From the sequence record PQ417132.1: a stretch of 44,205 bases of DNA; one strand, given 5' to 3'. Made by a program: the position numbers and the translations under genes. Below, piece after piece: positions 2,838 to 39,801 of this stretch. This DNA comes from Escherichia phage vB_VIPECOTH07. Under the pieces are notes generated by a model. That model was given only the letters and a program-made list of their open reading frames with translations, was not told where the DNA came from and did no database searches. Every line of letters begins with the position of its first letter. Positions within the stretch are counted from its first letter, which is position 1.

Positions 2838-2866
2838 AATATAATAGGGTCGAGGATAATAGTCAA
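2838..2866 (-). promoter_or_regulatory. sigma70-like promoter TTGACT-N17-TATATT
   Basis: Minus-strand reading: -35 TTGACT (2866..2861), 17-nt spacer, -10 TATATT (2843..2838); about 35 nt upstream of ATG at 2803. Confidence 0.5.
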
Positions 2867-2888
2867 CTAGTCATTACAGAAAACAGAT

Positions 2889-5382: not shown

Positions 5383-5414
5383 TTCGTTTTCCTCTGTCTC
5401 GTCTGTGTAAATGA

Positions 5415-5443
5415 ATAGTAGCCTATTCTATCTTAGTGTGCAA
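5415..5443 (-). promoter_or_regulatory. promoter TTGCAC-N17-TACTAT with dyad AATAG-N4-CTATT
   Basis: Minus-strand reading CTTGCACACTAAGATAGAATAGGCTACTATTCATTTA; dyad overlaps -10. Confidence 0.5.
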
Positions 5444-6876: not shown

Positions 6877-6910
6877 AACCATCACTCCTCTGTCTAGTTT
6901 CAATAAGTGA

Positions 6911-6939
6911 ATAGTAACCTATTATGTTGGGGTGTGCAA
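6911..6939 (-). promoter_or_regulatory. promoter TTGCAC-N17-TACTAT with dyad AATAG-N4-CTATT
   Basis: Minus-strand reading CTTGCACACCCCAACATAATAGGTTACTATTCACTTA; near-identical to copies at 5415..5443 and 30307..30335. Confidence 0.55.
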
Positions 6940-7322
6940 GAGATTCATTGAAAATGGTTACGTTGCCGTTGTGATTCTTCAGGTAGGGTTGTGCCTTTAT
7001 TCTTATTACTTGGTAACTAAAGGGCAGGCCCTAAGCCTGCCCAATAATCGTTACATTTTTACGGTTGCGAATCTACGGCACTTTAAGAAAATCAGATACT
7101 TAAGATATATTCCGCCGATGGGAATAGAGCTTGCCCAGGGCAACCGGAGATACTTAGGAAGGAAAGTTACGATAATTCGAATGTTCAGTAAACTGCCGCC
7201 TAACACTTCGCGTTGGGCGCTCGTTTTCGGCGGGTTTTACAAGGTGAACAGGAATCAAAGTAACTAAGATATAGAAGCACCTTAAACGAAGATTTTCTTA
7301 ATGTCAATAGGTGCGATTATGT

Positions 7323-7351
7323 TTGATTTCCCATTATTCGCAATGTATACT
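7323..7351 (+). promoter_or_regulatory. sigma70-like promoter TTGATT-N17-TATACT
   Basis: -35 TTGATT 7323..7328, 17-nt spacer, -10 TATACT 7346..7351; ~30 nt upstream of ATG 7384. Confidence 0.5.
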
Positions 7352-7383
7352 TGGTTTCGTTAACTGATAATGGGGGTTTGAGA

Positions 7384-7554
7384 ATGACGCAGAATGAGGT
7401 AGCTGAGCGTATCGGGGTTACTCGTCGCACGCTGAATAACTGGTTAAAGAGTGGGAAGTTCCCGGATTGTTGTATCCGTATTATGGGCCGCCGGCAGCCG
7501 GGTACTTTCGACCCGGAGAAAGTGGAAGCGTGGATTAAGGAGAATGTAAAATGA
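7384..7554 (+). CDS. AlpA/Xis-like HTH transcriptional regulator
   Basis: ATG at 7384 (SD GGGGG); MTQNEVAERIGVTRRTLNNWLKSGKFP is a typical AlpA-type HTH. Confidence 0.55.
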   Translation: MTQNEVAERIGVTRRTLNNWLKSGKFPDCCIRIMGRRQPGTFDPEKVEAWIKENVK

Positions 7555-7784
7555 CCGAGTTCCAGTCCCGCGTATTTACGGCAGTCGTTTCATTAACCTG
7601 TAAAAAAGGGTCGTGCAGCGTTATGGACTTGCGCCGTAGTTATTTTAGGTACTATAGTTCCGCCATTATTGAAGGGTCGTTGAAGGTACTGGTTAAATCT
7701 GGTGTCGTGAAAAATGTTGGCGGGAAATATAGTGCTGTTGCCGAAGTTCGCGGAATGACCGCTACTTTAGAAGACCTGGAATAA
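7551..7784 (+). CDS. hypothetical protein with C-terminal LEDLE tail
   Basis: ATGA-coupled to upstream gene; ends ...TATLEDLE. Confidence 0.45.
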   Translation: MTEFQSRVFTAVVSLTCKKGSCSVMDLRRSYFRYYSSAIIEGSLKVLVKSGVVKNVGGKYSAVAEVRGMTATLEDLE

Positions 7785-7842
7785 AAGAAAGCCCCGACGC
7801 GGTGAACGCCGAGGCTAAATTACTTGCTGAAGGAAATATAAC

Positions 7843-10083
7843 ATGTCCGATGTAATTTTATCCTACTCGTGGTCTCGTCGCAACGCGCGGGCCGAGAAAA
7901 AGGATATAAACGTCAGAACCACACACACGGCAACGCTGGGCGACCTGAAAGATTTAATCCAGCCGCTTGATGCTGTCCGTGACGGAATTAACCCGAAGAC
8001 CGCACCCGGTTATATCACCGCCGCGTGCGACTCCACACACAGCACCGTAAAAGACCCGGAAACCGGTGACTTTAAGCAAGCGCGTAAAGGCTTCTTCTAT
8101 CGCTGTGATGCGTCTGTAAGCAAATCGTCGCTGGCGTATCTTGACTTCGATAGCGCAACACCGGAAGAGTATCGGGAAGCGGTGCGCCTGGTTAAGCGCA
8201 GCCGCCAGGCGATGTGTCTCTACACCACGGCATCACATACCGACGAGTCGCCGCGCTTTCGCGTCGTCATGCCGCTGGCCCGCCCGGTTGAAGGTGGCGG
8301 CATCATCCGTGTTCGCCATGGATTACTGGAGCACTTCTTCAAAGGCATGGGCGCGGACCGCAGCGGGTTCACTCTGTCGCAGCCGATGTACCTGCCGCCA
8401 GTTGGCTCTACTGTTATCTGGTCGCGCCGCAACGACCTGATTGACCCTGATGAGTTACTGGAAGGCGCCCCAGCCGTTGACATCAGCAGCGCATCTGATT
8501 ACCAGATACCGGAAGAACTGCGCACCGCGTTTACAGATGCGTTTGAAGCACTGGCATTCGAGTACGGCGGCATCATGACGCCGCGTGGCCTTAAGATGCC
8601 AGCTACGCCAGAACACGCAGAAAACTACAGCGACCCGACCCCGCGCCCGGACGACTTCCTGCTGTGCTTCCCGCGCGAGGGATATGAAGCGCCGAACGTA
8701 ACGATGATTCACGACACCGACATCACGGCAACCGAAGGCATGTCGCCGAAAGAGGTGTGGAAATACGCGTGTGATGCGACCGGGCTGCCGTTCAGTGAAG
8801 TCGCCGAGGCTATCGGATGGGGTGCGCGTGAATCTGTTTCATGCAGCCTCGACGACCTGGAAGACGATGATGACTCAGAAGAGGACGAGCTACCGGAACC
8901 GGTAAAGGCTGATTTCGTCGTTGAGGGGTACATGCCGTCAGATTGTATCTGGGATATTGTTGGGGAATCCGGCACGTACAAATCGTTCTATACGCTGGGG
9001 ATGATGTACCTGAGCGCCGCCGGGTACAGGTTTGCGGGGGCGGATACCCAGCGTTGCCACCATTTCTATATTGATGGTGAGGGTGGCGCAGCTACACGCA
9101 CCCGTATTGATGCACTAGCGGCTAAATATGGCGGGGAAGGTAAAGATTATGTACACGTCATCGATATGGGCGAAGTCGGCAAACTTAAAAGCCTGATTAA
9201 GTTAATGCGCGAAACTGCTGGCGACGAGCCAATTGGCATGGTTGCGTTCGACACCCTTAACCAGACCCTGGCACTGACGATTGATAAGTTCGACGAGAAC
9301 AGTTCATCAACAGCAATCGGCATGGGTAAAGTTATCGCCATTCTGAAAGAAGTACGCGATGCAACTAAAGCCGCAGTAGGCGTTGTCCACCATACGCCGA
9401 AGGGTGGAAAGAAAGCACGCGGCAGTGGGGCGCTGTATGCGGGTGTTGACGTGGAACTGACAATCGAACGTGCAACCGACCGTCAGATAAACGTATATCA
9501 CTCGAAATTCAAGCACGGGCCTCAGCAGAAGACGGTTGGCATGGTGCTGGAGTCGGTACAGTTCCGTGAAGCGCCGCCGCCTAAAGAATACCGAGCGGTT
9601 GAGTTCCTGGGTAGCACAGAGGAATACGGCACAATCGTAAACCTCGATCTGCCTGAGCCGCACAAGGCGCTTGTGCTGATGCCGTGGGGCTTCGAGCCGT
9701 TCAAAACTGACGAGGAGAAAGAGCGGGAAGAAGGGTTGACGAAAGAAGGTAAGCAAAAAGTAAAGGAAGAAGTTAAACGCGGCAGGGATGAAGTAAGGAA
9801 GGAGTCAATACTTTCGGCACTGGAAGACCTGCAACAGTCAGATGACACAGGTCGCGGTTTTACTCAGCAGCAGATAGTGGCTCGTTCCGGTGACTTCTCT
9901 GTGACTAACACCCATCTTGATAAAATGTTGAAAGATGGAGAACTAATGCTTGGTTGCGATGCTAACGGCGAAGTAGTACCGAGAACATATCGTATACCCG
10001 AAAGAATAGGTGATAGATTAAGGCCGAAGACACTATACGAACCAAATGAGATGCTGGTGGTGACAGAGGAGGATTTGGAATAG
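7843..10083 (+). CDS. primase-helicase (AEP-like primase N-domain fused to RecA/DnaB-like ATPase)
   Basis: N-terminal LAYLDFD and TTASHTDESPRFRVVMPL resemble archaeo-eukaryotic primase motifs; C-terminal Walker A GESGTYKS and VVHHTPKGGKKARGSGALYAGVDVELTIER resemble RepA/DnaB-type helicases. Internal acidic stretch LDDLEDDDDSEEDE; ends ...TEEDLE. Confidence 0.7.
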   Translation: MSDVILSYSWSRRNARAEKKDINVRTTHTATLGDLKDLIQPLDAVRDGINPKTAPGYITAACDSTHSTVKDPETGDFKQARKGFFYRCDASVSKSSLAYLDFDSATPEEYREAVRLVKRSRQAMCLYTTASHTDESPRFRVVMPLARPVEGGGIIRVRHGLLEHFFKGMGADRSGFTLSQPMYLPPVGSTVIWSRRNDLIDPDELLEGAPAVDISSASDYQIPEELRTAFTDAFEALAFEYGGIMTPRGLKMPATPEHAENYSDPTPRPDDFLLCFPREGYEAPNVTMIHDTDITATEGMSPKEVWKYACDATGLPFSEVAEAIGWGARESVSCSLDDLEDDDDSEEDELPEPVKADFVVEGYMPSDCIWDIVGESGTYKSFYTLGMMYLSAAGYRFAGADTQRCHHFYIDGEGGAATRTRIDALAAKYGGEGKDYVHVIDMGEVGKLKSLIKLMRETAGDEPIGMVAFDTLNQTLALTIDKFDENSSSTAIGMGKVIAILKEVRDATKAAVGVVHHTPKGGKKARGSGALYAGVDVELTIERATDRQINVYHSKFKHGPQQKTVGMVLESVQFREAPPPKEYRAVEFLGSTEEYGTIVNLDLPEPHKALVLMPWGFEPFKTDEEKEREEGLTKEGKQKVKEEVKRGRDEVRKESILSALEDLQQSDDTGRGFTQQQIVARSGDFSVTNTHLDKMLKDGELMLGCDANGEVVPRTYRIPERIGDRLRPKTLYEPNEMLVVTEEDLE

Positions 10084-10085
10084 GT

Positions 10086-10110
10086 AAAAAGAAAGGGGCG
10101 TTACGCCCCT
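10086..10110 (-). terminator. rho-independent terminator overlapping XRE stop codon
   Basis: Hairpin GGGGCG-tta-CGCCCC; the XRE stop TAA is the loop; followed on minus strand by TTTCTTTTT. Confidence 0.6.
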
Positions 10111-10316
10111 TCACCTAGCGCCAGCCACTTGGCGTCTACTTCCAGCACTTCCGCCAGTTTAAACAGCGTTGCCGGGCGTACGTCCTGAGTTGCCCCGAGT
10201 GCAAGCTGGTTAATCGCGCCCTGGGAAACGCCGGCCAGAACAGCCAGACGGCGCTGGGAGATACCGAGTTCTTTACGGCGTTGCTCTACACGGATGCCTA
10301 GTTCAGATGGTTGCAT
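10101..10316 (-). CDS. XRE-family HTH transcriptional regulator (Cro/CI-like, 71 aa)
   Basis: ELGISQRRLAVLAGVSQGAINQLALG is a canonical XRE HTH. ATG at 10316 with AAGGAG 8 nt upstream. Monocistronic, antisense inside the replication module. Confidence 0.75.
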   Translation of the reverse strand: MQPSELGIRVEQRRKELGISQRRLAVLAGVSQGAINQLALGATQDVRPATLFKLAEVLEVDAKWLALGEGA

Positions 10317-10326
10317 GTCAGTTACT

Positions 10327-10355
10327 CCTTAGTCAGTTGATATGTGAATAGTACC
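10327..10355 (+). promoter_or_regulatory. operator-like dyad in weak promoter context (TTGATA ... AATAG-TACC-ATATT)
   Basis: Imperfect copy of the dyad, 44 bp upstream of the perfect copy at 10381..10394, between the XRE gene and the 10441 operon. Confidence 0.4.
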
Positions 10356-10370
10356 ATATTAATTATTTTA

Positions 10371-10399
10371 GAAAAGCCCATTGACATGTGAATAGTTCG
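10371..10399 (+). promoter_or_regulatory. strong sigma70-like promoter TTGACA-N17-TATAGT with embedded dyad
   Basis: -35 TTGACA 10371..10376, 17-nt spacer containing AATAGTTCGCTATT, -10 TATAGT 10394..10399; SD GAGAGGAGAG then ATG 10441. Confidence 0.65.
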
Positions 10400-10440
10400 C
10401 TATTATAGTTAGCCCATACCAAACGAGAGGAGAGAAACAA

Positions 10441-10941
10441 ATGTTAGACCAATTCTTAAAATTACTGGAACGTTTCGTAGTTGCTCATGAACTGATTGCT
10501 GCGAATAGCGCGAAACGACCGGTGCCGCAGACCGAGCGTGTAGGTGAAATGCTTGTACACGGGTCAGTCTGCGGAGATGTACTTGAAGTCGACACAGTCA
10601 CTGGTGTCGGGAAAGAAATCCCGGTCGAAGGTCAAGACATCGTCGACACTAAACCGGCAGAAGAAGAGAAGCCAAAACGCAAGCCGCGTAAAGCTAAAGT
10701 AGAGGAGCCGACGCCAGAACCGGAAGAAGAAGTCGATTACCAGTCTCTGCGTGACCAGATTCAGGCTATCGACGATGCGATTAACGAAGGTCCGAGCGAT
10801 GCCGCGTGCGACGACTCCGATGAACTGCTGGAAGAGTTTACCGGCAAGAAGATGAAGATTGCCGCGATTAAAGACGAAGACCTGGCCGAGTACCTGGAAC
10901 GCCTGACGGCGATCAAGAACAAGTATTTCGAAGAAGAATAA
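10441..10941 (+). CDS. highly acidic protein, function unknown
   Basis: Strong promoter and RBS; Glu/Asp-rich (PEPEEEVDYQ, DDSDELLEEF, ends KYFEEE). Confidence 0.6.
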   Translation: MLDQFLKLLERFVVAHELIAANSAKRPVPQTERVGEMLVHGSVCGDVLEVDTVTGVGKEIPVEGQDIVDTKPAEEEKPKRKPRKAKVEEPTPEPEEEVDYQSLRDQIQAIDDAINEGPSDAACDDSDELLEEFTGKKMKIAAIKDEDLAEYLERLTAIKNKYFEEE

Positions 10942-10984
10942 CTATCCGGCGGCCTTCGGGCCGCTTTAACAGAGGGTCGTAATT

Positions 10985-11200
10985 ATGCGTAACGTATATA
11001 AAGTGATAAATGAGCAAATCGTTGTGGAAATAAGCGAGGCAACCACGGGTGAACAACGATTTTTCGTATTAAACGGGTGTTGGTATGGCGTTCTTGATTA
11101 CAATAATAATCTGGTGTGGGCCGAAAATTATCCCGACAGAAAACAGAAGCTTATGTCCGTACGTACTGCTGCTAAAGGTGAATTCGCACCGTACTACTGA
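10985..11200 (+). CDS. hypothetical protein
   Basis: ATG-initiated ORF in operon. Confidence 0.45.
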   Translation: MRNVYKVINEQIVVEISEATTGEQRFFVLNGCWYGVLDYNNNLVWAENYPDRKQKLMSVRTAAKGEFAPYY

Positions 11201-11211
11201 GGGGCGTAATT

Positions 11212-11547
11212 ATGAACTACGAAAATTTAACAGACATAGAAATTAACGCACGCGTCAGCCGCGCGCTATACGGCGATGTTTCGCGAGGGCATCAGATGGA
11301 ATTAGCTTCTGGTGATGTTGATTATTGCAACCGCGTTGAAGACGCATGGCCTGTTATCACCGGTAACAACATCTCGATTGTAGCTACCGATTCAGAATGG
11401 ATTGCTTTACCAGATAATGCGGTTATTGACGGTATTACCGGAGACGCCACCAGTATGATTTACGTTGGTGACGAATGCGTTATCGGCGAAAACCCTCTAC
11501 GCGCCTCTATGATTGTCTTCTTGAGAACGCATGAGGTGGATAAATGA
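11212..11547 (+). CDS. hypothetical protein (DUF2591-like pattern)
   Basis: N-terminus MNYENLTDIEINARVSRALYG recalls a common enterophage protein family of unknown function. Confidence 0.45.
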   Translation: MNYENLTDIEINARVSRALYGDVSRGHQMELASGDVDYCNRVEDAWPVITGNNISIVATDSEWIALPDNAVIDGITGDATSMIYVGDECVIGENPLRASMIVFLRTHEVDK

Positions 11548-11816
11548 TTTACCAACTATACCGCGCCGTAGACAGGCGGGATAACACAGAGGCGTTGTGG
11601 CTGTTGCGTGCGCCGTCCGGAGCGCACCAGATGGAAGAGATGGCTTACTTAGGCAAAGTACCGCGGCCTAAAGATATAGGCCGTCACGTGTCACAGATTA
11701 AGCGCACGACATTCGCCAAGCCAGACTTTTATGTCTTTGAGTCGATGTATGGGTGGGCTATGCACTGCGAACATAAGACGCGACATTTAATCGACCAGTG
11801 GGAGAGCAGGGTATGA
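11544..11816 (+). CDS. hypothetical protein
   Basis: Overlaps upstream stop; no motif recognised. Confidence 0.45.
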   Translation: MIYQLYRAVDRRDNTEALWLLRAPSGAHQMEEMAYLGKVPRPKDIGRHVSQIKRTTFAKPDFYVFESMYGWAMHCEHKTRHLIDQWESRV

Positions 11817-11962
11817 CAAGGTACGCGATAATTGTAGAAATAGACGGTAAAGACCAGGAACACAGCCGCTACGCACGTTTGGACGAAGCCCAGTACATCT
11901 TCTACACATTCGGCTTCGCACGCAGTTTCACTAATGCGCGTATTGTGGAGATTGCAGAATGA
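11813..11962 (+). CDS. hypothetical small protein (~49 aa)
   Basis: Hand-translated MTRYAIIVEIDGKDQEHSRYARLDEAQYIFYTFGFARSF...; ATG overlaps upstream stop. Confidence 0.3.
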   Translation: MTRYAIIVEIDGKDQEHSRYARLDEAQYIFYTFGFARSFTNARIVEIAE

Positions 11963-12117
11963 CGAACCGTAAAGCGCGACTTCTCTTTATTAAATGTCAC
12001 CAGCCTTTTCGAGTAAGCAACTCGACTTGGCTGATTATATTCAACCGTAGCGGTGACACGTGCGCCTACAAGCGCAAAACGCGTAAAGTTAAATGGGGTG
12101 GGAGTTTAAGAGCATGA
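11959..12117 (+). CDS. hypothetical small basic protein (~52 aa)
   Basis: ATGA overlaps at both ends (11959 and 12114); MTNRKARLLFIKCHQPFRVSNSTWLIIFNRSGDTCAYKRKTRKVKW... Confidence 0.3.
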   Translation: MTNRKARLLFIKCHQPFRVSNSTWLIIFNRSGDTCAYKRKTRKVKWGGSLRA

Positions 12118-13355
12118 AACTAAAAGAACGAGGCGGCAATAATGATGTACACGCCTTACTGTCACCGTCAGGCGCTAAAAAGTGGCTGTCATGCGCTGCG
12201 TCGCTGGCGTGTGAAAAAGATATCCCTAACACGTCGGGTAAAGCCGCTGTATCAGGAACCGCCATGCACACCATAGCTGAGGTCCATCTCAACGCCTATA
12301 TACGCGGCACTGCGTTGCCGTTGGAGCGTGAAGTCGGCGCTTACGTGCTGGACGAGGGTAAAGGCCAGATTAAGGCGCTAATTAGCCAGATGAAAGGCGC
12401 GGTACTGATTACGGCTGACATGATTGAGCAGGTGCGCAAGTACACCGACTACTGCAAAGCGATTATCGACGTAGCGACTTACGCCAAGCTGGAAATGCGG
12501 GTAAATCTTACTGAGGTATTGCATCCGGGTTACGAAGGCGTTGAGACGTTCGGAACCGCTGACCTTGTTGCCGTTCAGGAACTGGCGAACACTGACGAGC
12601 ATATGCTCATTATCGGCGACCTGAAAACAGGACGGCATCATGTCGAAGCGAAAGAAAACAAGCAGCTTATGCTCTACGCTCTCGGTGTTTACCGCCGACT
12701 CAAGAGACGTTATAACATATCAGTAGTGCGCCTGGTCATCTTCCAGCCGTACGCCGGGGGCGCGTCGGAGTGGGACATCTCGGTTGAAGGTCTGGAACTG
12801 TTCGCTAAGTTCGCACAGAAACGCGCACTGTTAGCCCTTGATGCGTATTTCCGAGGCAAGAAGAACCTGAAAGCGTCGGACTTTAAGCCGTCTGTCGACG
12901 GTTGTCAGTGGTGTCGGTTCTCTGAACAGTGCGCAGCGCGTACAAAGACGGTTAATTCTGTACTTGCCGAAGAACTGGAGGACGACTTTGCGCTGGAACT
13001 TACGCCGGAGCAACTCGTAGCTGAATATGAGAAGTTGCCGTTGTTGCGCCAGCACATCGATAAGGTCGAAAAAGCTATGGCTGCTGCGTTGCATTCCGGT
13101 AAGAAAGTGCCAGGGTACAAGCTGGTGGAAGGTCGCCCAGGTAATCGTGCGTGGAAAGACGCAGAGAAAGTAGCAGAACTCTACGGCGACAAGCTGACTA
13201 AAGAAGTGCTCCTGACGCCGACCGAAGCGGTTAAAGTAATACCAGAAGAAGAACTGAAAGACTTCATCACACGTAAGCCGGGGACGCCATGCGTCACAAC
13301 AGCGGACGACAAACGTCCTGAGTGGAATAAGGTTAGTGAAGAAGATTTAGAATAA
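12114..13355 (+). CDS. PD-(D/E)XK exonuclease, Cas4/RecB-like with four-Cys cluster
   Basis: ADLVAV...IIGDLKTGRHH nuclease motifs; N-terminal WLSCAASLAC plus C-terminal CQWCRFSEQC match the Cas4-type Fe-S Cys pattern. Start moved to ATG 12114 (track 12093). Ends ...VSEEDLE. Confidence 0.7.
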   Translation: MKLKERGGNNDVHALLSPSGAKKWLSCAASLACEKDIPNTSGKAAVSGTAMHTIAEVHLNAYIRGTALPLEREVGAYVLDEGKGQIKALISQMKGAVLITADMIEQVRKYTDYCKAIIDVATYAKLEMRVNLTEVLHPGYEGVETFGTADLVAVQELANTDEHMLIIGDLKTGRHHVEAKENKQLMLYALGVYRRLKRRYNISVVRLVIFQPYAGGASEWDISVEGLELFAKFAQKRALLALDAYFRGKKNLKASDFKPSVDGCQWCRFSEQCAARTKTVNSVLAEELEDDFALELTPEQLVAEYEKLPLLRQHIDKVEKAMAAALHSGKKVPGYKLVEGRPGNRAWKDAEKVAELYGDKLTKEVLLTPTEAVKVIPEEELKDFITRKPGTPCVTTADDKRPEWNKVSEEDLE

Positions 13356-13359
13356 AGTG

Positions 13360-13388
13360 TTGACATCTGAATAGTTAGCTATTATAGT
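13360..13388 (+). promoter_or_regulatory. strong sigma70-like promoter TTGACA-N17-TATAGT with embedded dyad
   Basis: TTGACATCTGAATAGTTAGCTATTATAGTT; same architecture as 10371..10399; a CCGGG-cagctt-CCCGG hairpin follows in the leader (13401..13416). Confidence 0.65.
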
Positions 13389-13442
13389 TCTAATCACTGG
13401 CCGGGCAGCTTCCCGGAGTAATCTTAAAAGCGAGAAATCAAG

Positions 13443-14069
13443 ATGGGCATTAAACTGAATCTGCGTAAAGTAAACACTGCATGGGTTAACGTATTCGAAC
13501 GCGAAAAAGACCGTGAAAACGACGACGGCTCAATCACTAAAGGCCAGTACAGCGCAACTATCATCCTGCCGACTGACCATGCTCAAATCGATGCGCTGTA
13601 CGACACTGTTTACGCTGTAGTTGAAGAAGCATTAGGTGCAGCTGCTGCCGAGAAGTGGATGAAGTCAAACTACGGCGAAGGCAAGCATATGGATAAATGC
13701 GCTATTAAAGACATTGCTGAGCGCGACAATCCGTTTGAAGACTTCCCGGAAGGCTTCTACTTCAAAGCGAAAGCACAGAAACAGCCGCTGATTGTAACCT
13801 CTAAAAAAGGTGAGACTCAGGTGGAGCAGGACTTCAACGTAGACGGTGAACAGATTGAAGGTGAACAGGTTTACAGCGGCTGCGTCGCTAACGTAAGCGT
13901 CGAAATCTGGTTCAGCCAGAAATATAAAGTACTCGGCGTTAACCTGCTGGCGATTAAATACGTCGGAGAAGGTAAAGCGTTTGGAGGCTCTAAAGTTGCT
14001 GCAAGCGTCGACGACCTGGAAGACGACGAAGAAGATGAAGCACCGCGCCGCGAACGTCGCCGCCGTTAA
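13443..14069 (+). CDS. single-stranded DNA-binding / annealing protein (putative)
   Basis: Own strong promoter, next to the exonuclease; acidic DDLEDDEEDE segment then basic RRERRRR C-terminus. Fold not verified. Confidence 0.45.
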   Translation: MGIKLNLRKVNTAWVNVFEREKDRENDDGSITKGQYSATIILPTDHAQIDALYDTVYAVVEEALGAAAAEKWMKSNYGEGKHMDKCAIKDIAERDNPFEDFPEGFYFKAKAQKQPLIVTSKKGETQVEQDFNVDGEQIEGEQVYSGCVANVSVEIWFSQKYKVLGVNLLAIKYVGEGKAFGGSKVAASVDDLEDDEEDEAPRRERRRR

Positions 14070-14088
14070 TATCTGAATCAATTTAACT

Positions 14089-14112
14089 AAGGCCCTTCAT
14101 TGGGCCTTTTTA
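14089..14112 (+). terminator. rho-independent terminator / attenuator
   Basis: AGGCCC-ttcatt-GGGCCT followed by TTTTT, between SSB-like gene and DNA polymerase. Confidence 0.6.
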
Positions 14113-14128
14113 CTAAGGGTCGAAAATA

Positions 14129-16309
14129 ATGAGTTACCTGTTCTTAGACTTTGAAACATTCTCCGAAGCCGATTTGAAGAAAGTCGGTTCCTACGCTTAC
14201 GCCGAACATCCAACTACCGAAGTGCTAATCTGTACATATGCTTTTAACGACCAGCCTGTACAGGTATGGGATTGCACCGACGGCAGCGATATGCCGGGCG
14301 ATTTGTATCGCGCGTTACGCCGCCTGGTTAAGCCGAACAGCCGCGTTAAGATGGTGTGGCACAACGGCTCAATGTTCGATAGGCTCGTCATGAAACACTG
14401 CTGGGGTTTTGACATTCCGGTAAGCAACACCATTGATACGATGATTTGGGCGTTTCGTCACGCGCTGCCGGGTTCGCTCGATGCGCTGTGCGAAGTGCTG
14501 GGCGTATCTGCTGACAACGCAAAAGACAAACGCGGTAAGGCGCTGATTCAGCGTTTCTCTAAACCGACACCGAAGAACTACAAAATTCGCCGCTATACCG
14601 CCGAAACGCACCCTGACGAGTGGGCGCTGTTCATCAAGTACGCAGTTAGCGACATCACCGCGATGCGTGAAGTGTTCCATAAGCTACCGCGGTGGGGTAA
14701 CTCGGAGTTTGAGGACCGTGTACTGGAACTGGACCAGTTAATCAACGACCGCGGGTTTAAGGTCGACGTTGCGTTGGCGGAAGCCGCGATTGAAGCGGTA
14801 GAGAAACACAAAGCGCAGTTGCAGGAAGAAGCCCAACGTAAATACGGCGGCTCGCTTACTGGTAAAGACTTCCTTCCTATTCTGCGTGAACTTGCGCCAG
14901 CGCACCGAATCCACAACGCGCAGAAGTCGACGCTAAATGACCTGTTGGCGGATGATGATTTACCGGACGACGCCCGCACGATTATCGAAATGCGCCTCGG
15001 GGCGGCATCCACTGCGTCAACGAAATATAACCCGCTGCTGTTAGGCCGCTCGTCTGACGACCGCCGTCGCGGTTGCATCCAGTATGGTGGAGCTAAACGT
15101 ACGTTACGATTTGCGGGTAAAGGCTTCCAGCCGCAGAACCTGGCTCGCGGGTACTATCACGACGACGAACTGGATAAAGGCATTTCTGCGTTACTTAAAG
15201 GCCGTGCGCACCGCCGTTTCGATGTAGCCAAACTAACGGCATCGACGGTGCGCAGCTGCATTATACCTGAAGCCGGGCATAAGTTTGTCGTCGCCGATTA
15301 CTCTAACGTTGAAGGCCGCGGTTTGGCGTGGCTGGCTGGCGAAGAAACCGCGCTTGATACGTTCCGTGCCGGGCTGGATATTTACTGCGTAACCGCAGGC
15401 AAGATGTTTGGCATGGAGTCGGATTACATTAAGAAAGAACGTAAAGACTTACGCCAGATTGGTAAGGCCTGCGAACTGGGACTTGGCTACGCGGGTGGTG
15501 TCGGCGCATTCGTACAGTTCGCCAAAAACCTCGGCCTTGACCTTGTTGATATGGCAAAAACAATGGACGGGACTTTCCCCGACCACATCTGGGCTGCTAC
15601 CGCACGTGGATATGAGTGGGCGCGTATTCAGGAAGCCAAGCGACCGCCACGTCCTGGTGAAAAAGATGACCGACCATCTTATATTCTTGATAAGAAAGTG
15701 TGGCGTACCTGCGACGCTATCAAGCGTATGTGGCGTGAGTCACACCCGGAAACAGTAGCTTTCTGGCGTGATATTGAAGATGCGGCTATGGCGGCTATCC
15801 GCAATCCGGGCAAAGAGTTCACCGCGGGGCCGCGGGGAGTTAAGTTTTCGCGCAACGTAGAGACAGACAACAACAGCAACAAAGTCGCCGGTTGGTGGCT
15901 GCGCATGACGTTGCCGTCGGGCCGCGTTATGTCTTACCCAGGCGTAGGGTTGAGCGTATCGAAAGAGACAGACGAAGATGGGAAGGTGTCTACTAACGTG
16001 CGCATAAAGTACCAGGGAGAAAATCAGTTAACCCGTCAGTGGGGCTTCCAGTACACATATTCCGGTAAACTCGTGGAAAACTGCACACAGGCGCTGTGCC
16101 GTGATTTGCTGGCTAATGCGCTGCTGAACGTCGAAGCAAACGGCTACCCGATTGTGCTTCATGTTCACGATGAGATTATCTGCGAGACACCAGATTTACC
16201 GGAATACAATGTTGCAGAGCTTGAGCGGTTGATGTGCGAATTACCTGAATGGGCGGAGGGGTTCCCTCTTGTAGCAGAAGGTGCGGAGATGAAGCGTTAT
16301 GCCAAGTAA
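14129..16309 (+). CDS. DNA polymerase, family A, with 3'-5' exonuclease domain
   Basis: Exo I DFETFS; motif A VVADYSNVEGRGLAWLAGE; motif B RQIGKACELGLGYAGG; motif C VLHVHDEII. Confidence 0.9.
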   Translation: MSYLFLDFETFSEADLKKVGSYAYAEHPTTEVLICTYAFNDQPVQVWDCTDGSDMPGDLYRALRRLVKPNSRVKMVWHNGSMFDRLVMKHCWGFDIPVSNTIDTMIWAFRHALPGSLDALCEVLGVSADNAKDKRGKALIQRFSKPTPKNYKIRRYTAETHPDEWALFIKYAVSDITAMREVFHKLPRWGNSEFEDRVLELDQLINDRGFKVDVALAEAAIEAVEKHKAQLQEEAQRKYGGSLTGKDFLPILRELAPAHRIHNAQKSTLNDLLADDDLPDDARTIIEMRLGAASTASTKYNPLLLGRSSDDRRRGCIQYGGAKRTLRFAGKGFQPQNLARGYYHDDELDKGISALLKGRAHRRFDVAKLTASTVRSCIIPEAGHKFVVADYSNVEGRGLAWLAGEETALDTFRAGLDIYCVTAGKMFGMESDYIKKERKDLRQIGKACELGLGYAGGVGAFVQFAKNLGLDLVDMAKTMDGTFPDHIWAATARGYEWARIQEAKRPPRPGEKDDRPSYILDKKVWRTCDAIKRMWRESHPETVAFWRDIEDAAMAAIRNPGKEFTAGPRGVKFSRNVETDNNSNKVAGWWLRMTLPSGRVMSYPGVGLSVSKETDEDGKVSTNVRIKYQGENQLTRQWGFQYTYSGKLVENCTQALCRDLLANALLNVEANGYPIVLHVHDEIICETPDLPEYNVAELERLMCELPEWAEGFPLVAEGAEMKRYAK

Positions 16310-16430
16310 ACTGAGTATCGCGGTACTGGCGGGATTCGCCGCCGGTGTCTACTGTCACGAGGGTCAATACGGCATGATGGTTGCCGTGTTAGGTATGTTC
16401 GTCGCAATTTATCTGTGGGTGATGGAATGA
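16299..16430 (+). CDS. small membrane peptide (~43 aa)
   Basis: Hand-translated MPSKLSIAVLAGFAAGVYCHEGQYGMMVAVLGMFVAIYLWVME; ATG overlaps the end of the polymerase gene. Confidence 0.3.
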   Translation: MPSKLSIAVLAGFAAGVYCHEGQYGMMVAVLGMFVAIYLWVME

Positions 16431-16512
16431 AAATTTACTGGTTTTATGAAGAAGACTGCCGAATCTGTCCGCGCTGTGGAATTGAGCATACGAAACGCGA
16501 GGGGTGCATATT

Positions 16513-16665
16513 ATGACAATGTTTGTATTTTGGACGATAGTAACCATGATCGCACTGTTACTCGGTGCGGGAATAGCCGCGATGTTCCGCTATGGCCTGT
16601 TCTTTAAGTTTGTCGGTGTTGCCGTTCTAGGAGGGGCTTTCCTTACTTGGGTTCTGCGCTCATGA
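16513..16665 (+). CDS. small membrane peptide (~50 aa)
   Basis: Hand-translated MTMFVFWTIVTMIALLLGAGIAAMFRYGLFFKFVGVAVLGGAFLTWVLRS; ATGA-coupled to VRR-NUC gene. Confidence 0.3.
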   Translation: MTMFVFWTIVTMIALLLGAGIAAMFRYGLFFKFVGVAVLGGAFLTWVLRS

Positions 16666-16964
16666 CTAAAGAGGGCCGCGTACAGAAATATGCAAAAGAG
16701 AGGTTCGAGGCCATCGGTGGCCTCGTTCGTAAGCTGTCTTATGAGGGTAGAAACGGGGCGCCTGACCTGCTGGTAGTCCTACCGGGAGGGGTGATATGGT
16801 TCGTCGAGGTGAAGAAAGACGAAAACACGGAACCGGAGGCCCATCAGTTGCGGGAACACAAACGGCTTCGTAAACGTGACGCAAATGTTTTTGTAGTAGG
16901 AACAAAAGAAGAGGTTGACGACCTAATAGCGAGCTATTATAGTAGTCATACACCAACAATATAA
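16662..16964 (+). CDS. VRR-NUC domain nuclease
   Basis: GAPDLLVVLPGGVIWFVEVKKD matches the VRR-NUC D...E-x-K pattern. Start moved to ATG 16662 (track 16647). Confidence 0.6.
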   Translation: MTKEGRVQKYAKERFEAIGGLVRKLSYEGRNGAPDLLVVLPGGVIWFVEVKKDENTEPEAHQLREHKRLRKRDANVFVVGTKEEVDDLIASYYSSHTPTI

Positions 16965-16975
16965 GGAATTGAGAA

Positions 16976-17179
16976 ATGAGAAAGTTAGGCCCGCACATCG
17001 TTAAGTACATGTACGAAAAATATGATGGCGACATTGTAACCGCATTGGAGGGATTAGTTGGCGCTGAATCTGTTTTAGATGATCTTGAATTTGACCGACT
17101 GTGCATATGTATAGACGAGGCAAAACGTAACGCACTGAATTATGTACTAGAAAACTACTGCACAGAGGAAGACGAATAA
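16976..17179 (+). CDS. hypothetical protein (acidic C-terminus ...TEEDE)
   Basis: ATG ORF with upstream GGAA; no motif. Confidence 0.45.
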   Translation: MRKLGPHIVKYMYEKYDGDIVTALEGLVGAESVLDDLEFDRLCICIDEAKRNALNYVLENYCTEEDE

Positions 17180-17373
17180 TGAATAAATACGAATATGACC
17201 GCAAACCAGCACGCGACATCGTACCCGGTGACATGATTTTCAACGTTAAGACACGCCAGCCTGTTGCCGTTGATACGGTGTTCGTCGAGTCGAACGGTAA
17301 ACTGGTTATCGAAGACGTAACTGGTAACGTTACAGCGTTTGGGCGTAAAGAGCTTGTTCTGGTGGCAAAATGA
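17179..17373 (+). CDS. hypothetical protein
   Basis: ATG overlaps upstream stop (TAATG). Confidence 0.45.
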   Translation: MNKYEYDRKPARDIVPGDMIFNVKTRQPVAVDTVFVESNGKLVIEDVTGNVTAFGRKELVLVAK

Positions 17374-18794
17374 GTAAGTTTCAAAGGCGCGAATATCAGA
17401 AGCTCATGACTTCGTTCATGCTGCAACACCCGCGCTGTAATATCTGGTGTGGCATGGGAGGGGGTAAAACCTCCTCTACTATGTGGGTGTTAAACCGCTT
17501 GTTCCGCAACGGGCAGCTTACAGAAGAGGACCGCGTGTTAATCCTCGCCCCGTTGCGTGTTGCGTCGGGTACGTGGCCTGCAGAACAAGAGAAATGGAAC
17601 TTCCCTTGTCTGCGTGTCGTCGATGCGACCGGTTCGGAGAAGCGCCGCATCGCGGCGCTGGAGTCAGACGCTAACGTGGTGTGCACTAACTACGAAGTTA
17701 TCGAGTGGCTAATTGACTACTACGGCAAAGACGACTGGCCTTTTACGGTTATCGTTGCCGATGAAAGCACGAAGCTTAAATCGTTCCGCAGCCGTTCGGG
17801 TGGTAGCAAGCGGGCAAAGGCGCTCAGCAAGGTTGCGTTCGGAAAGGTTAAGCGTTTCATCAACCTTACTGGTACACCGTCGCCAAACGGCCTCAAGGAC
17901 TTGTGGGGGCAGAACTGGTTTATCGACGCTGGCGAGCGACTCGGTTCATCGTACACAGCATTCACCGACCGCTGGTTTAACTCGGTACAGAAAGGTAAAT
18001 CGGCTATGGCCCGCGAGTATCATGCACGACCGGGTGCGGATAATGAGATTCATCAGAAGATGAAAGACATCAGCCTGACCATAGACCCTGCCGAGTGGTT
18101 TGGTTGTGAAGCGCCTGTTATCGTACCGGTTGAAATAGACCTACCGAAGAAGGCGCGTCAGGCGTACATAGATATGGAGGAGAAGTTATTCGCAGAACTG
18201 GAGAGCGGGGAAGTTGAAGCGGCTAACGCTGCGGCGAAGACCTCAAAGTGCTTGCAGATTGCATCTGGTGCCGTGTATGTGTCAGGGCCGGATGGCGAAG
18301 CGACCAAAGACTGGGAGAAAGTGCACGACACGAAACTGGATGCGCTCGAGTCGATTGTTGAGGAGTTGCAGGGTGCGCCGTTGCTGGTAGCCTATCAGTT
18401 TAAACACGAACTGGAGCGTATCCTTAAGCGATTCCCTCAGGCGCAGGCTTTTTCTAAGGGTGCGAAGGGTAATAAGCAGATGGAAGCGTGGAACCGTGGC
18501 GAAATCGAAATCTTATGCGTGCATCCCGCGTCAGCCGGTCATGGTTTGAATTTACAGGACGGCGGGCATCATCTGGCATTCATCTCGCAAGGCTGGAACC
18601 TTGAGCACTATTTGCAGGTTGTCGAGCGCATAGGCCCCGTACGCCAGAAACAGGCGGGTCACGAGCGCCCGGTGTTCCTTTATCACATCGTTGCTAAAGA
18701 CACTCTGGACGGGGTTGTCGCCGCGCGTACCGACGAGAAGAAATCGGTACAGGAAGAGTTGCTTAATTACATGAAGAGACGAGGTAAGAAATGA
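17370..18794 (+). CDS. superfamily 2 DNA helicase (SNF2/DEAD-like)
   Basis: Walker A CGMGGGKTSS, motif II VIVADESTKLKS, C-terminal helicase-domain motifs HPASAGHGLNLQDGGHHLAF. Confidence 0.75.
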   Translation: MSKFQRREYQKLMTSFMLQHPRCNIWCGMGGGKTSSTMWVLNRLFRNGQLTEEDRVLILAPLRVASGTWPAEQEKWNFPCLRVVDATGSEKRRIAALESDANVVCTNYEVIEWLIDYYGKDDWPFTVIVADESTKLKSFRSRSGGSKRAKALSKVAFGKVKRFINLTGTPSPNGLKDLWGQNWFIDAGERLGSSYTAFTDRWFNSVQKGKSAMAREYHARPGADNEIHQKMKDISLTIDPAEWFGCEAPVIVPVEIDLPKKARQAYIDMEEKLFAELESGEVEAANAAAKTSKCLQIASGAVYVSGPDGEATKDWEKVHDTKLDALESIVEELQGAPLLVAYQFKHELERILKRFPQAQAFSKGAKGNKQMEAWNRGEIEILCVHPASAGHGLNLQDGGHHLAFISQGWNLEHYLQVVERIGPVRQKQAGHERPVFLYHIVAKDTLDGVVAARTDEKKSVQEELLNYMKRRGKK

Positions 18795-19306
18795 TGGATT
18801 TCGAAGAGTTTCTACTTAAAGCTCATCTGCTGGCGCGTGGGTTTGACGCTGACCGTCTCCAGGTAGTCTTAGCCCCTGGAGTAGCTACGTTTTACCTGTG
18901 GGGGTTTGACGGTAGGCTTCGCGGATACCAGCATTACAAACCACATGCCGAAAAGAACTGTAAAAACCCTAAAGACGCGCGGTACTTTACCAGAACAACA
19001 AGGCCGTGTTTATGGGGGCTTGAGTATTTGCCGGAAAGCGGGGTGGTATTTGTTACCGAAAGCATATTCAAAGCCGTAGCCTTGATGAATTGCGGGTTCA
19101 ATGCTGTAAGCGCACTGGGGTCAAATATATCAACAGACCTACGGCAGCAAATGTCACTTTTGCCGTATGACTGGGTGTGCGCTGGCGACAATGATAAAGC
19201 TGGATTAAAGTTCAGCAAAACATTCACCAGAGGATTTGTATCTAACGACCTTGATGAACTTTGTGAAGAAGAAATAACGTATCTTGCGAGGAAATTTACC
19301 AGATGA
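18791..19306 (+). CDS. Toprim-domain protein (putative DnaG-type primase core)
   Basis: Conserved Glu in VFVTESIFKAVALMNCGF and DxD in VCAGDNDKAG match Toprim catalytic motifs. Confidence 0.5.
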   Translation: MMDFEEFLLKAHLLARGFDADRLQVVLAPGVATFYLWGFDGRLRGYQHYKPHAEKNCKNPKDARYFTRTTRPCLWGLEYLPESGVVFVTESIFKAVALMNCGFNAVSALGSNISTDLRQQMSLLPYDWVCAGDNDKAGLKFSKTFTRGFVSNDLDELCEEEITYLARKFTR

Positions 19307-22423: not shown

Positions 22424-22435
22424 ATAGAGTCCTCT

Positions 22436-30199: not shown

Positions 30200-30306
30200 T
30201 CTTTAATCCTTTGGTTAAGAGGTTACTGGTTAAGGTTAATGCGCCAGACGGGAACCACCCGCTTTTCGTGTGCGACACTAGGCGCAAAATAATTCTAACA
30301 CATTAC

Positions 30307-30335
30307 TTGCACACCCCAACATAATAGGATACTAT
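30307..30335 (+). promoter_or_regulatory. promoter TTGCAC-N17-TACTAT with dyad AATAG-N4-CTATT
   Basis: ACTTGCACACCCCAACATAATAGGATACTATTCACTTA; near-identical to the minus-strand copies at 5415 and 6911; SD AGGAG then ATG 30377. Confidence 0.6.
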
Positions 30336-30348
30336 TCACTTACACCAA
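30321..30348 (-). promoter_or_regulatory. candidate divergent promoter for tail chaperone operon (TTGGTG-N16-TATTAT)
   Basis: Reverse strand of the same element reads GTGTAAGTGAATAGTATCCTATTATGTT, resembling the 10371 and 13360 promoters; lies upstream of gene 30199 on minus strand. Confidence 0.35.
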
Positions 30349-30376
30349 CAATGTTAACTCAAACAGGAGCTACCCC

Positions 30377-30568
30377 ATGACAGGTATTACTATGTTCTTC
30401 TTAATCATTATCGTTTTAGTTTATTTTATCCCATTTCTCGTGGCGCATATGCGCAACCATAAAGCTAAATTAGCGATATTCATGGCTAATCTGTTTCTCG
30501 GTTGGGTTCTGCTGCCGTGGGTATTTATTTTAATCTGGGCGTGCAACTCGAATGTCAAAGAGAAGTGA
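30377..30568 (+). CDS. small two-TM membrane protein, superinfection-immunity (Imm)-like
   Basis: IPFLVAHMRNHKAKLAIFMANLFLGWVLLPWVFILIWAC matches the Imm-like consensus pattern from memory; two hydrophobic helices. Confidence 0.45.
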   Translation: MTGITMFFLIIIVLVYFIPFLVAHMRNHKAKLAIFMANLFLGWVLLPWVFILIWACNSNVKEK

Positions 30569-30606
30569 GCTAGTATAGGACAAATCCTAAACACGAGGAA
30601 GTAAGC

Positions 30607-31737
30607 ATGGCCCAGAAGAAAATAACCGACGAACAGTTACAGGAAGAATTGAACGCCGGGATGAAGAATGTAGACATCGCCCGTAAATACGGCATCTCAG
30701 ACCGAGTTATTCGTATCCGTAAAGCGAAGCTGGCTAAGAAAGGTGTAGGCCACGGGCGTGACGTTAGCCACCTTGTACCAGATGGCTACAAGATTAAAGG
30801 CACATCGTCGCTGGTTGATGAGTTCGGCAACACTAAGTTGCAATGGGTTAAGACCGACACCGATGCCGAACGTCAGGTCGAGTTGATGAAAGCCATAATC
30901 GAGGGCATGAAGTCGGAGATTACCCCCGTTGCTCCTGTTAAAGCCGTTCGCGCCAAACGGGACGACAAGCTACTCAACCTTTACACTGTGTCTGATTTCC
31001 ATCTCGGTATGCTGGCCTGGGCCGACGAGAGTGGCGACGACTGGGATATGAAGATTGCAGAAGACCTGTTCTCCCGTTGGTTCGATGCGGCATTCCAGAA
31101 AGCACCGGATGCGGGGACTGGGGTTATTAACCTGCTGGGCGACTTCGCGCACTTCGATAGTCTGGTTGCCGTTACACCTGCAAGCGGTCACGCCCTTGAC
31201 GCCGACACCCGTTACCAGAAACTTGTCCGCTACATGATTCGCATGGTCCGCCGTGTTGTCGATATGGCGCTGGTTAAGCATAAAAATGTTCGCTTGCTTA
31301 TCGTGCAAGGGAATCACGACGAAAGTGGCATGATTTGGTTGGCTGAGATGTTCAGTACGCTGTATGACAATGAGCCGCGTGTGTTCGTCGATACGTCACC
31401 GGATGTTTACAAGATGGTGCAACACGGCAAAACGACGCTGTTCTTCCATCACGGGCATAAAGCACGATTCGACGCTATTGAACCTGTTATGATTGCCAAG
31501 TTCCGTAAAGCGTTCGGCGAGAGTGTTTACAGCTACGCCCACGTAGGCCATCTGCACCACCAGAAGATTGTAGAAAGCCGTAACATGATTGTTGAGCAAC
31601 ACCGCACCTTAGCGGCTAAAGACGCCTACGCCTCCCGCGGAGGTTGGATGTCGGGCCGTAGTGCAAATGTAATTACTTATAGCGCCGAATTTGGCGAGGT
31701 CGCACGTTTAACTATTTCACCGGAGATGCTGGGATGA
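30607..31737 (+). CDS. HTH-fused calcineurin-like metallophosphoesterase (SbcD/Mre11-like motifs)
   Basis: N-terminal HTH KNVDIARKYGISDRVIRIRK; phosphoesterase motifs VSDFHLG, LGDFAHFD, QGNHDE, FFHHGH, VGHLHH. Confidence 0.75.
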   Translation: MAQKKITDEQLQEELNAGMKNVDIARKYGISDRVIRIRKAKLAKKGVGHGRDVSHLVPDGYKIKGTSSLVDEFGNTKLQWVKTDTDAERQVELMKAIIEGMKSEITPVAPVKAVRAKRDDKLLNLYTVSDFHLGMLAWADESGDDWDMKIAEDLFSRWFDAAFQKAPDAGTGVINLLGDFAHFDSLVAVTPASGHALDADTRYQKLVRYMIRMVRRVVDMALVKHKNVRLLIVQGNHDESGMIWLAEMFSTLYDNEPRVFVDTSPDVYKMVQHGKTTLFFHHGHKARFDAIEPVMIAKFRKAFGESVYSYAHVGHLHHQKIVESRNMIVEQHRTLAAKDAYASRGGWMSGRSANVITYSAEFGEVARLTISPEMLG

Positions 31738-39534: not shown

Positions 39535-39785
39535 GTTTCTCCTTTCTCGATAAGTAAAGCCCCGCTTTAAGGCGGGGCGCTAGTCCTTATCATTTAAACA
39601 TAGAAACGGCGTAATCTCAGTAAACCCGTTACTTTTTACACGAGCAATAGAGTATGGCCCTTCCGAACGCGTCAGCGTAACTACACTCATGACTTACGTC
39701 CCGCTCCGTTACCTGCCCGCGCCGCGGTCGCTTGTTCATACTTCACAAGCTCAGGTGGAGCTTAGCACATTTTTAGTGAAAAGTC

Positions 39786-39801
39786 AACTATTCGAATAGT
39801 T
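39786..39801. repeat. perfect 16-bp palindrome AACTATTCGAATAGTT
   Basis: Read directly; carries the same GAATAG / CTATTC half-sites as the promoter dyads but everted and with a 2-bp centre. Confidence 0.8.

Follow-up and report, generated by a model that had tools for sequence, protein, structure and literature searches.

During the lytic growth of lambdoid phages, Cro acts as a late down-regulator of the early promoters. The operators of phage 434 are 14 bp long (ACAAT-NNNN-ATTGT), with protein contacts to the outer 5 + 5 bases and none to the inner four (PMC1636474), and the central four base pairs are also uncontacted by the P22 repressor (PMC4267663). In restriction-modification (R-M) systems, the timing provided by the controller (C) proteins is set by operator affinity (PMC2647307). 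The present analysis concerns a locus comparable to these systems, namely, the XRE-type helix-turn-helix (HTH) gene of Escherichia phage vB_VIPECOTH07 and a 14-bp dyad, AATAG-N4-CTATT, that is repeated near this gene and elsewhere in the genome. The window analysed is the whole stretch of 44,205 nt of sequence record PQ417132.1, which represents a whole Kagunavirus genome. On balance, we favour the view that the dyads are bound by XRE, and this protein would probably act as a brake on early and middle genes throughout the genome rather than as a local switch of the lysogeny type. The motif has already been published under another interpretation, and the XRE gene has already been annotated without analysis; no functional study of it was found in the literature, where genome reports only label the gene "repressor", "DicA" or "Cro".

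The dyad AATAG-N4-CTATT is the commonest 5-N4-5 palindrome of the genome; the window contains six perfect copies, whereas 1000 dinucleotide shuffles of the same sequence gave 0.029 copies on average and never more than 1. All six copies (at 5414, 6910, 10391, 13370, 16925, and 30323) are intergenic, and all overlap promoter cores. In the promoters designated here as type I (TTGACA/TTGACG-17-TATAGT at 10381, 13360, and 16915), which match sigma-70 better than any other sites of the first 20 kb, the dyad is located in the spacer; in a second class, TTGCAC-17-TACTAT, with two leftward members (5414 and 6910) and one rightward member (30323), the −10 hexamer itself lies within the dyad. The copy at 30323 lies at the same time in the spacer of a leftward TTAACA-17-TAGTAT promoter-like site. 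With the imperfect copy next to the XRE gene, the sites number at least seven, and the XRE locus is one node among them; the one-mismatch dyad AATAGTCAACTAGT at 2858 is a probable further member of this set. So, the "self-contained" switch proposed in an earlier note on this DNA had to be abandoned, as five of the perfect dyads belong to promoters elsewhere in the genome. The dyad occurs in either orientation, and its offset from the −10 hexamer differs between the two promoter classes, which indicates a separate protein-binding element rather than a copied piece of promoter. Among 36 distinct versions of the region 5' of XRE in Kagunavirus, the ten half-site positions are invariant, the promoter-proximal dyad varies at three of its four central positions, and the stretch between this dyad and the −35 hexamer is also variable, including a 1-bp indel.

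The XRE gene is the sole minus-strand gene between a plus-strand block (7351-10083), composed of the genes for an HTH_17 protein, a 77-aa protein, and primase-helicase, and the plus-strand replication genes (10441-19306). The intergenic region 10317-10440, which separates it from the rightward replication operon, is 124 bp long and contains divergent promoters, each overlapped by a dyad, as at the lambdoid Cro/CI loci. The near-consensus rightward promoter and the two dyads spaced 44 bp apart that had been described in the earlier note were both recovered, with the qualification that the XRE-proximal dyad is imperfect. The rightward promoter extends from TTGACA at 10381 to TATAGT at 10409 and matches the sigma-70 consensus in 11 of 12 positions; its −35 hexamer is invariant in the 36 relatives, and its −10 hexamer differs in one of them (L034). 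The perfect dyad AATAGTTCGCTATT fills its spacer and is a proposed operator. The XRE-proximal dyad AATAGTACCATATT, with one mismatch, is proposed as the autoregulatory operator, and only its central spacer position varies across the 36 relatives. The distance between the two centres is 45 bp in some other Kagunavirus genomes and 55 bp in Jerseyvirus.

The leftward promoter suggested earlier for XRE, TTCACA-16-TAAAAT, is present with a 10/12 match; it is, however, not the best-conserved candidate, as its −10 hexamer is altered in one relative (L014) and destroyed in another (L043, 77% XRE identity), and it has no counterpart in Jerseyvirus. An extended −10 element, TGgTACTAT, lies wholly within the XRE-proximal dyad. 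The form TGnTACTAT is conserved at all Kagunavirus loci, the same place in Jerseyvirus is occupied by TTGCGT-17-TACTAT, and TACTAT is also the −10 hexamer of the second-class promoters at 5414, 6910, and 30323. Owing to this conservation and the shared −10 class, the extended −10 element is more probably the XRE promoter than TTCACA-16-TAAAAT, and both may serve; the leader transcribed from the favoured promoter would be about 24 nt. Since dyads overlie both candidates, autoregulation would not depend on the choice between them. As a separate observation, positions 10337-10361 and 10381-10405 form 25-nt direct repeats with 84% identity and a 44-bp period, each starting with a −35-like TTGA(T/C)A; the two XRE-proximal sites have the appearance of a tandemly duplicated promoter-operator unit. 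The left repeat doubles as a weak promoter-like site facing rightward (TTGATA-18-AATTAT).

In the Kagunavirus fBC-Eco01, PHIRE listed seven "phage RNA-polymerase promoters" with the consensus tgAATAGTa-ccTATTat-T (PMC9825357). These sites carry the same motif as the dyad described here, and neither its palindromic nature nor a link with XRE appears in that report. The published reading as promoters of a phage polymerase is corrected here, as these are phages without their own RNA polymerase and the motif is palindromic: no phage-encoded RNA polymerase was found in the annotation of Bas76, a well-annotated close relative (98.6% XRE identity, same gene order), or in a Pfam scan of ten mid-sized window open reading frames (ORFs). 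A modified version, in which the dyad is a duplicated promoter cassette for the host RNA polymerase, has no dedicated repressor, and is unrelated to XRE, could explain why the motif was recognized as a promoter at all, why the flanks past the dyad are partly shared (GTG..., ...ATAGT), and why the XRE-proximal copies are so alike. We nevertheless regard this version as highly improbable. Sigma-70 does not read promoter spacer sequence, and yet it is the ten palindromic positions that are kept and the centre that varies; moreover, a copied promoter cassette does not fit with an element found in both orientations and at two offsets, and the absence of a phage polymerase gene weighs against it as well. 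The dyad flanks, compared by eye with the consensus sequences of CRP, ArgR, and Fur, fitted none of them.

By sequence and predicted fold, the XRE product is a 434-Cro-type HTH protein. It matches Pfam HTH_3 with 47.1 bits (cut-off 23; E = 2.4e-12) and the transcriptional regulator and repressor families of PHROG at about 1e-10. Among proteins of known structure, the closest in sequence are 434 Cro and the N-terminal domain of the 434 repressor (E about 1e-5, residues 6-68), with E = 7.8e-6 for 434 Cro in the PDB. An alignment-based AlphaFold2 model (11 sequences) was used, as the single-sequence prediction was too poor; it has a pLDDT of 78.5, a pTM of 0.65, and five helices (5-17, 21-28, 32-39, 48-57, and 62-66), of which helices 2-3 form the helix-turn-helix and residues 32-39, VSQGAINQLALG, the predicted recognition helix. 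With this model, Foldseek matched 1pra, 2cro, 2r1j, and 3qq6 (TM 0.73-0.8), the alignment with 434 Cro (2cro) showing 40% identity and an rmsd of 2.1 Å over 63 columns; the best fold matches were the 434 repressor, SinR, 434 Cro, P22 c2, controller proteins, and HipB/HigA antitoxins. The 20 matches of a protein search were all close phage relatives, and the recognition helix was not found among them in any unrelated context.

A comparison of 34 Kagunavirus XRE alleles with that of the window revealed 419 synonymous and 94 non-synonymous codon differences, indicating that the gene is under purifying selection. The recognition helix shows a single change across these alleles, G33S, in a phage with the same dyads. 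The alleles have a mosaic structure, with an N-terminal variant, QQSPIGARM, and a C-terminal one, RRTT...KPEW, in differing combinations (including the relative L043), which suggests recombination within the 216-nt gene, with the recognition helix constant throughout. In Salmonella phage GE_vB_HIL (MG969408.1, 6001-6230), a frameshift of one base interrupts XRE in the region of the recognition helix; this phage was considered as a natural XRE knockout and rejected, since the record is marked UNVERIFIED and the one-base difference is probably a sequencing error. A genome-reduction study of phage seszw was also considered as a source of essentiality data and set aside, as it concerns a Skatevirus.

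The XRE gene ends in its own intrinsic terminator, a hairpin rich in G+C with a U-tract directly after it on the minus strand. The arms of the stem, GGGGCG (10095-10100) and CGCCCC (10104-10109), are extended by AA/TT; the stem has 9 pairs, 6 of them G-C, with a folding energy of −18.9 kcal/mol (z = −2.5), and the 3-nt loop is the XRE stop codon itself (TTA on the plus strand, 10101-10103). Past the stem, the minus strand reads TTTCTTTTT, with the T-run UUUCUUUUU, which gives a CUUUUU tail in the RNA. On the plus strand, nothing but TT (UUCACC) comes after this hairpin, without a U-tract, which makes it a good terminator in one direction only; efficient termination would be expected for the transcripts of XRE and poor termination for those of the primase-helicase gene. 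In the record of the Jerseyvirus Ent1, bidirectional terminators are annotated at the corresponding place. The primase-helicase gene ends at 10083, and 17 nt separate this end from the XRE stop codon. The earlier description of a lone antisense 71-aa XRE gene, with its stop codon in the loop of a GC hairpin followed by a T-run, monocistronic and convergent with the primase-helicase gene, is therefore retained in full.

The phage itself is obligately lytic, as the genus is regarded to be (PMC9825357, PMC12919940). Neither the annotation of Bas76 nor the Pfam scan of the ten mid-sized ORFs, which returned nucleases, single-stranded DNA (ssDNA)-binding protein, lysozyme, tail tube, and terminase and no recombinase, contained an integrase, as the earlier note had stated; Rfam and tRNA scans of the window gave no RNA genes. 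The 2-kb stretch around the XRE locus matched 445 phage records with 80-96% identity, nearly all of them Escherichia and Salmonella Guernseyvirinae, with Kagunavirus phages the nearest. A different layout is seen in Salmonella phage St162 and Klebsiella phage VLCpiS11a, where XRE (about 40% identity) is co-directional with the primase-helicase gene and directly upstream of it. There, the XRE operon is divergent from the replication genes, which is the lambdoid cro position. The primase-helicase block of the window (7351-10083) is inverted relative to St162 (9779-12685) and VLCpiS11a (19971-22573), and in Kagunavirus and Jerseyvirus this inverted block opens with the HTH_17 gene and the gene for the 77-aa protein (phrog_5169), both missing from St162. 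Given the other layout in St162 and VLCpiS11a, the lone antisense XRE gene with its own terminator is specific to the lineage studied here.

Such relatives raise the question of whether XRE could be the leftover Cro of a temperate ancestor that now acts mainly between phages or on the host, for instance, on co-infecting relatives or prophage operators, and has no part in timing the cycle of its own phage. The CI, Cro, and DicA proteins of temperate phages are 34-42% identical to XRE, the XRE of St162 and VLCpiS11a stands first in an operon with replication genes, and the same dyad occurs in two genera, so that cross-repression is conceivable. This origin and role together seem improbable to us, because the gene is under strong purifying selection and universally retained in about 480 lytic genomes and because the dyads lie in the strongest promoters of the phage itself.

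Expression data come from the Kagunavirus K1B4, where gene 008 (183 nt) is one of four early genes and gene 004 peaks in the middle period of infection (RNA-seq; PMC12645636). K1B4_004 is identified as the XRE orthologue by its 216 nt, its lone position on the opposite strand, and its distance of 17 nt from the primase-helicase gene. Gene 008 is the HTH_17 orthologue, so the XRE orthologue peaks later than this early gene. The XRE orthologue is thus transcribed in the course of infection, as the earlier note required of the gene, and with this transcription, the absence of integrase, and the lytic nature of the genus, the lytic-cycle role that had been preferred over lysogeny appears reasonable.

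The binding of the dyads by XRE, which we favour, can be weighed further in the relatives. No AATAG dyad is present in the St162-type genomes; St162 itself contains a related motif, ATTAG-N3-AGTAT, in four copies against 0.04 expected. This motif is located in both promoters flanking XRE, one copy being at the position homologous to the rightward-promoter spacer of the window, and a scan of 20 small proteins of St162 gave XRE as the sole recognizable DNA-binding regulator. In the Jerseyvirus genomes, AATAG-N4-CTATT is the top dyad too.

Several results of this comparison, which took in Kagunavirus, L043, Jerseyvirus, the St162-type phages, and VLCpiS11a, speak against binding of the dyads by XRE. 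The St162 motif is not a true palindrome. The Jerseyvirus XRE is only 49% identical to that of the window and has QSLITH in its recognition helix in place of QGAINQ, and the genome-wide dyad is nevertheless identical; its helix is closer to that of St162, though the St162 motif differs. The XRE-proximal sites of Jerseyvirus are the most degenerate copies (AATCG..CTATT and ATTAC..CTATT). Recognition helix and motif thus do not change together cleanly across the five lineages, a result that is at most mildly negative. To this should be added that the K1B4 time course is coarse, with nearly all genes classed as "middle" (PMC12645636), and that no binding or genetic data were found in the literature for any member of the family. 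Finally, the two genera share 79% identity in the HTH_17 protein, the distribution of which tracks the dyad exactly.

The last point, together with the early expression of the K1B4 orthologue, makes HTH_17 (an excisionase/MerR-like family) a genuine rival for the dyad-binding role. It may be supposed that another phage protein, most plausibly the early HTH_17 protein, binds the dyads and represses or times the promoters, the targets of XRE being elsewhere, either local or in the host. The gene was found in 442 phage records, essentially the Kagunavirus and Jerseyvirus set, and is absent from St162 and VLCpiS11a, where the dyad is absent too, whereas XRE has diverged more between the genera with the dyad remaining constant. 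However, a perfect 5+4+5 palindrome fits a dimer of the Cro type, and the HTH_17 proteins, of 56-67 aa, have no recognizable dimerisation module. The promoter-like site of the HTH_17 operon (7323-7351) lacks a dyad, unlike the XRE gene, which is flanked by two. With their near-consensus hexamers and spacers of 17 bp, the type I promoters do not need an activator of the MerR type, and the St162-type phages keep a multi-copy promoter-embedded motif even without HTH_17. We therefore consider dyad binding by HTH_17 unlikely, although it is the most probable of the rival readings.

If XRE is the protein that binds the dyads, the following course of events can be inferred. A dimer of XRE would occupy the 14-bp site AATAG-N4-CTATT, and, since the dyad lies in the spacer of the type I promoters and over the −10 hexamer of the second class, the bound protein would block RNA polymerase. 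The monocistronic XRE gene would be driven by the weak extended −10 promoter TGgTACTAT within the imperfect dyad, and such a weak promoter overlapping an operator implies that XRE accumulates with a delay. The K1B4 orthologue, which is expressed but not one of the earliest genes, agrees with this course within the resolution of a coarse time series. It would first lower the activity of the strong promoters with perfect dyads, which serve the replication operon and other non-structural operons; at a higher level, its own weaker site would be occupied and its own synthesis limited. The outcome would be a Cro-like negative feedback without CI, integrase, or lysogeny.

A broader proposal, which we put forward only tentatively and hold to be rather doubtful, is that a Cro-type protein serves as the master feedback repressor of an obligately lytic subfamily in a minimal "Cro-only" temporal programme. 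In such a programme, single operators would lie inside the cores of nearly all strong non-structural promoters, and the rise of XRE would be slowed by its weak, operator-overlapping promoter. At early times, XRE would be damped by antisense read-through from the primase-helicase operon over the one-way terminator, and the two local sites would be bound cooperatively across the divergent promoters. The spacings of the local sites, 44-45 bp in Kagunavirus and 55 bp in Jerseyvirus, are each near whole helical turns plus 0.2. Read-through damping and cooperative local binding are possible but unsupported.

The practical consequences are as follows. The presence of a "repressor" gene in these genomes is no sign of lysogeny, which settles a recurring annotation worry for Kagunavirus and Jerseyvirus phages, commonly isolated for therapeutic and biocontrol purposes and employed as small chassis for engineering. 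If XRE does control the dyad-bearing promoters, one small gene and a 14-bp site would explain the restraint of early and middle expression and would provide a portable repressor-operator pair; at the same time, payloads placed under dyad-bearing promoters would be shut down.

Table 1 Features of the XRE locus and of the dyad set in the window
Feature	Position	Strand	Basis
XRE / 434-Cro-like HTH gene, 71 aa	10101..10316	-	ORF; Pfam HTH_3
Intrinsic terminator of the XRE gene	10083..10112	-	GGGGCG/CGCCCC stem, UAA loop, minus-strand U-tract only
Shine-Dalgarno AAGGAG, 8 nt 5' of the XRE ATG	10325..10330	-	read from sequence; kept in relatives
XRE-proximal dyad, one mismatch, proposed autoregulatory operator	10347..10360		sequence
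Extended -10 TGgTACTAT, favoured XRE promoter, wholly within dyad	10348..10356	-	sequence, conservation
Leftward promoter candidate of the earlier note, TTCACA-16-TAAAAT	10365..10392	-	10/12 match, less conserved
Rightward promoter TTGACA-17-TATAGT, replication operon	10381..10409	+	11/12 sigma-70 match
Perfect dyad in rightward-promoter spacer, proposed operator	10391..10404		sequence
First rightward-operon gene, acidic 166-aa protein (phrog_3127, function unknown)	10441..10941	+	no Pfam match
HTH_17 (excisionase / MerR-like) protein gene	7384..7554	+	Pfam, PHROG; longest ORF from 7351, homologues match from M12
Primase-helicase gene, convergent with XRE	7843..10083	+	ORF list, Pfam
One-mismatch dyad on -35 of leftward TTGACT-17-TATATT	2858..2871		Ent1 counterpart
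Perfect dyad on leftward TTGCAC-17-TACTAT	5414..5427		motif and promoter match
Perfect dyad on leftward TTGCAC-17-TACTAT of small-gene operon	6910..6923		motif and promoter match
Perfect dyad in TTGACA-17-TATAGT spacer, 5' of ssDNA-binding protein and polymerase genes	13370..13383		
Perfect dyad in TTGACG-17-TATAGT spacer, 5' of helicase operon (16976 onwards)	16925..16938		
Perfect dyad common to back-to-back promoters, TTGCAC-17-TACTAT rightward and TTAACA-17-TAGTAT leftward	30323..30336		

Some further observations were made around the dispersed sites listed in Table 1. In the back-to-back pair at 30303-30362, the rightward site faces the operon 30377-32773 (exonuclease, phosphatase-like), and the leftward site faces the tail chaperone and tape-measure genes; the same arrangement around one dyad is found in Ent1 (L004, near 1230-1290). 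A hairpin, CCGGGCAGCTTCCCGG, is located at 13389-13425 in the leader just 3' of the 13360 promoter, before the ssDNA-binding protein gene, and its sequence is also found beside the orthologous dyad of Ent1 (near 17640-17674). Between late genes, at 39779-39801, there is a perfect 16-bp palindrome, AACTATTCGAATAGTT, in which the same half-sites are everted (CTATT-CG-AATAG); this palindrome overlaps both a dyad with one mismatch, AAAAGTCAACTATT, and a TTGACT promoter-like site that points leftward. The leftward small-gene operon is separated from the HTH_17/primase-helicase block by an unusually long non-coding gap of about 450 bp (6904-7350), which contains strong terminator-like hairpins (7022-7042 on the minus strand and 7197-7219 on the plus strand) and several weak promoter-like sites.

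The comparison with known systems sets the locus apart from the controller, antitoxin, and lambdoid Cro/CI arrangements. An R-M controller arrangement was not found, as the terminator follows XRE directly and no gene lies downstream; nor was that of a type II antitoxin (HigA/HipB-like), as XRE has no co-directional neighbour on either side. The C proteins C.AhdI, C.BclI, and C.PvuII resemble XRE in being small XRE-fold dimers with delayed autoregulated expression and are among its fold matches; they differ in having a paired C-box 5' of their own gene and a co-transcribed nuclease, whereas XRE stands alone, with local sites 44 bp apart and the others dispersed. The designation "Cro/CI-like" used in the earlier note can be kept for the HTH of the Cro/434 type and for the divergent promoters with dyads, but not for the remainder of the switch. 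There is no CI-type divergent repressor, the product of 10441-10941 having neither a Pfam match nor an HTH; only two local dyads are present and not an operator triplet; the lysogeny module is absent in that no integrase was seen in the mid-sized ORFs or in Bas76; and the replication operon headed by cro is a feature of St162 and VLCpiS11a and not of the window.

The closest parallel is 434 Cro, which is the best sequence and fold match of XRE and shares with it the length of 71 aa and the HTH_3 fold of five helices. The candidate operator AATAG-N4-CTATT repeats the 5+4+5 organization of the 434 operator, with conserved outer bases and a free centre, and the candidate sites overlap promoter cores, including that of the XRE gene itself. 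The half-site, however, is AATAG as compared to ACAA(T/G), and the residue aligned to Gln29 of 434 is Gly or Ser. Moreover, the XRE gene, a monocistronic unit that converges on the primase-helicase gene, does not head the replication operon, and it has no CI partner, OR1-3 triplet, or lysogeny, the candidate sites being scattered over at least seven promoters. As compared to the Cro proteins of lambda and P22, the proposed operators are single and dispersed and form no bistable switch, and the phage is obligately lytic; the likeness would consist in a small early/middle repressor that controls its own synthesis along with the strong early promoters by feedback. Taken together, this comparison suggests that the XRE locus probably works as Cro does in lytic growth.

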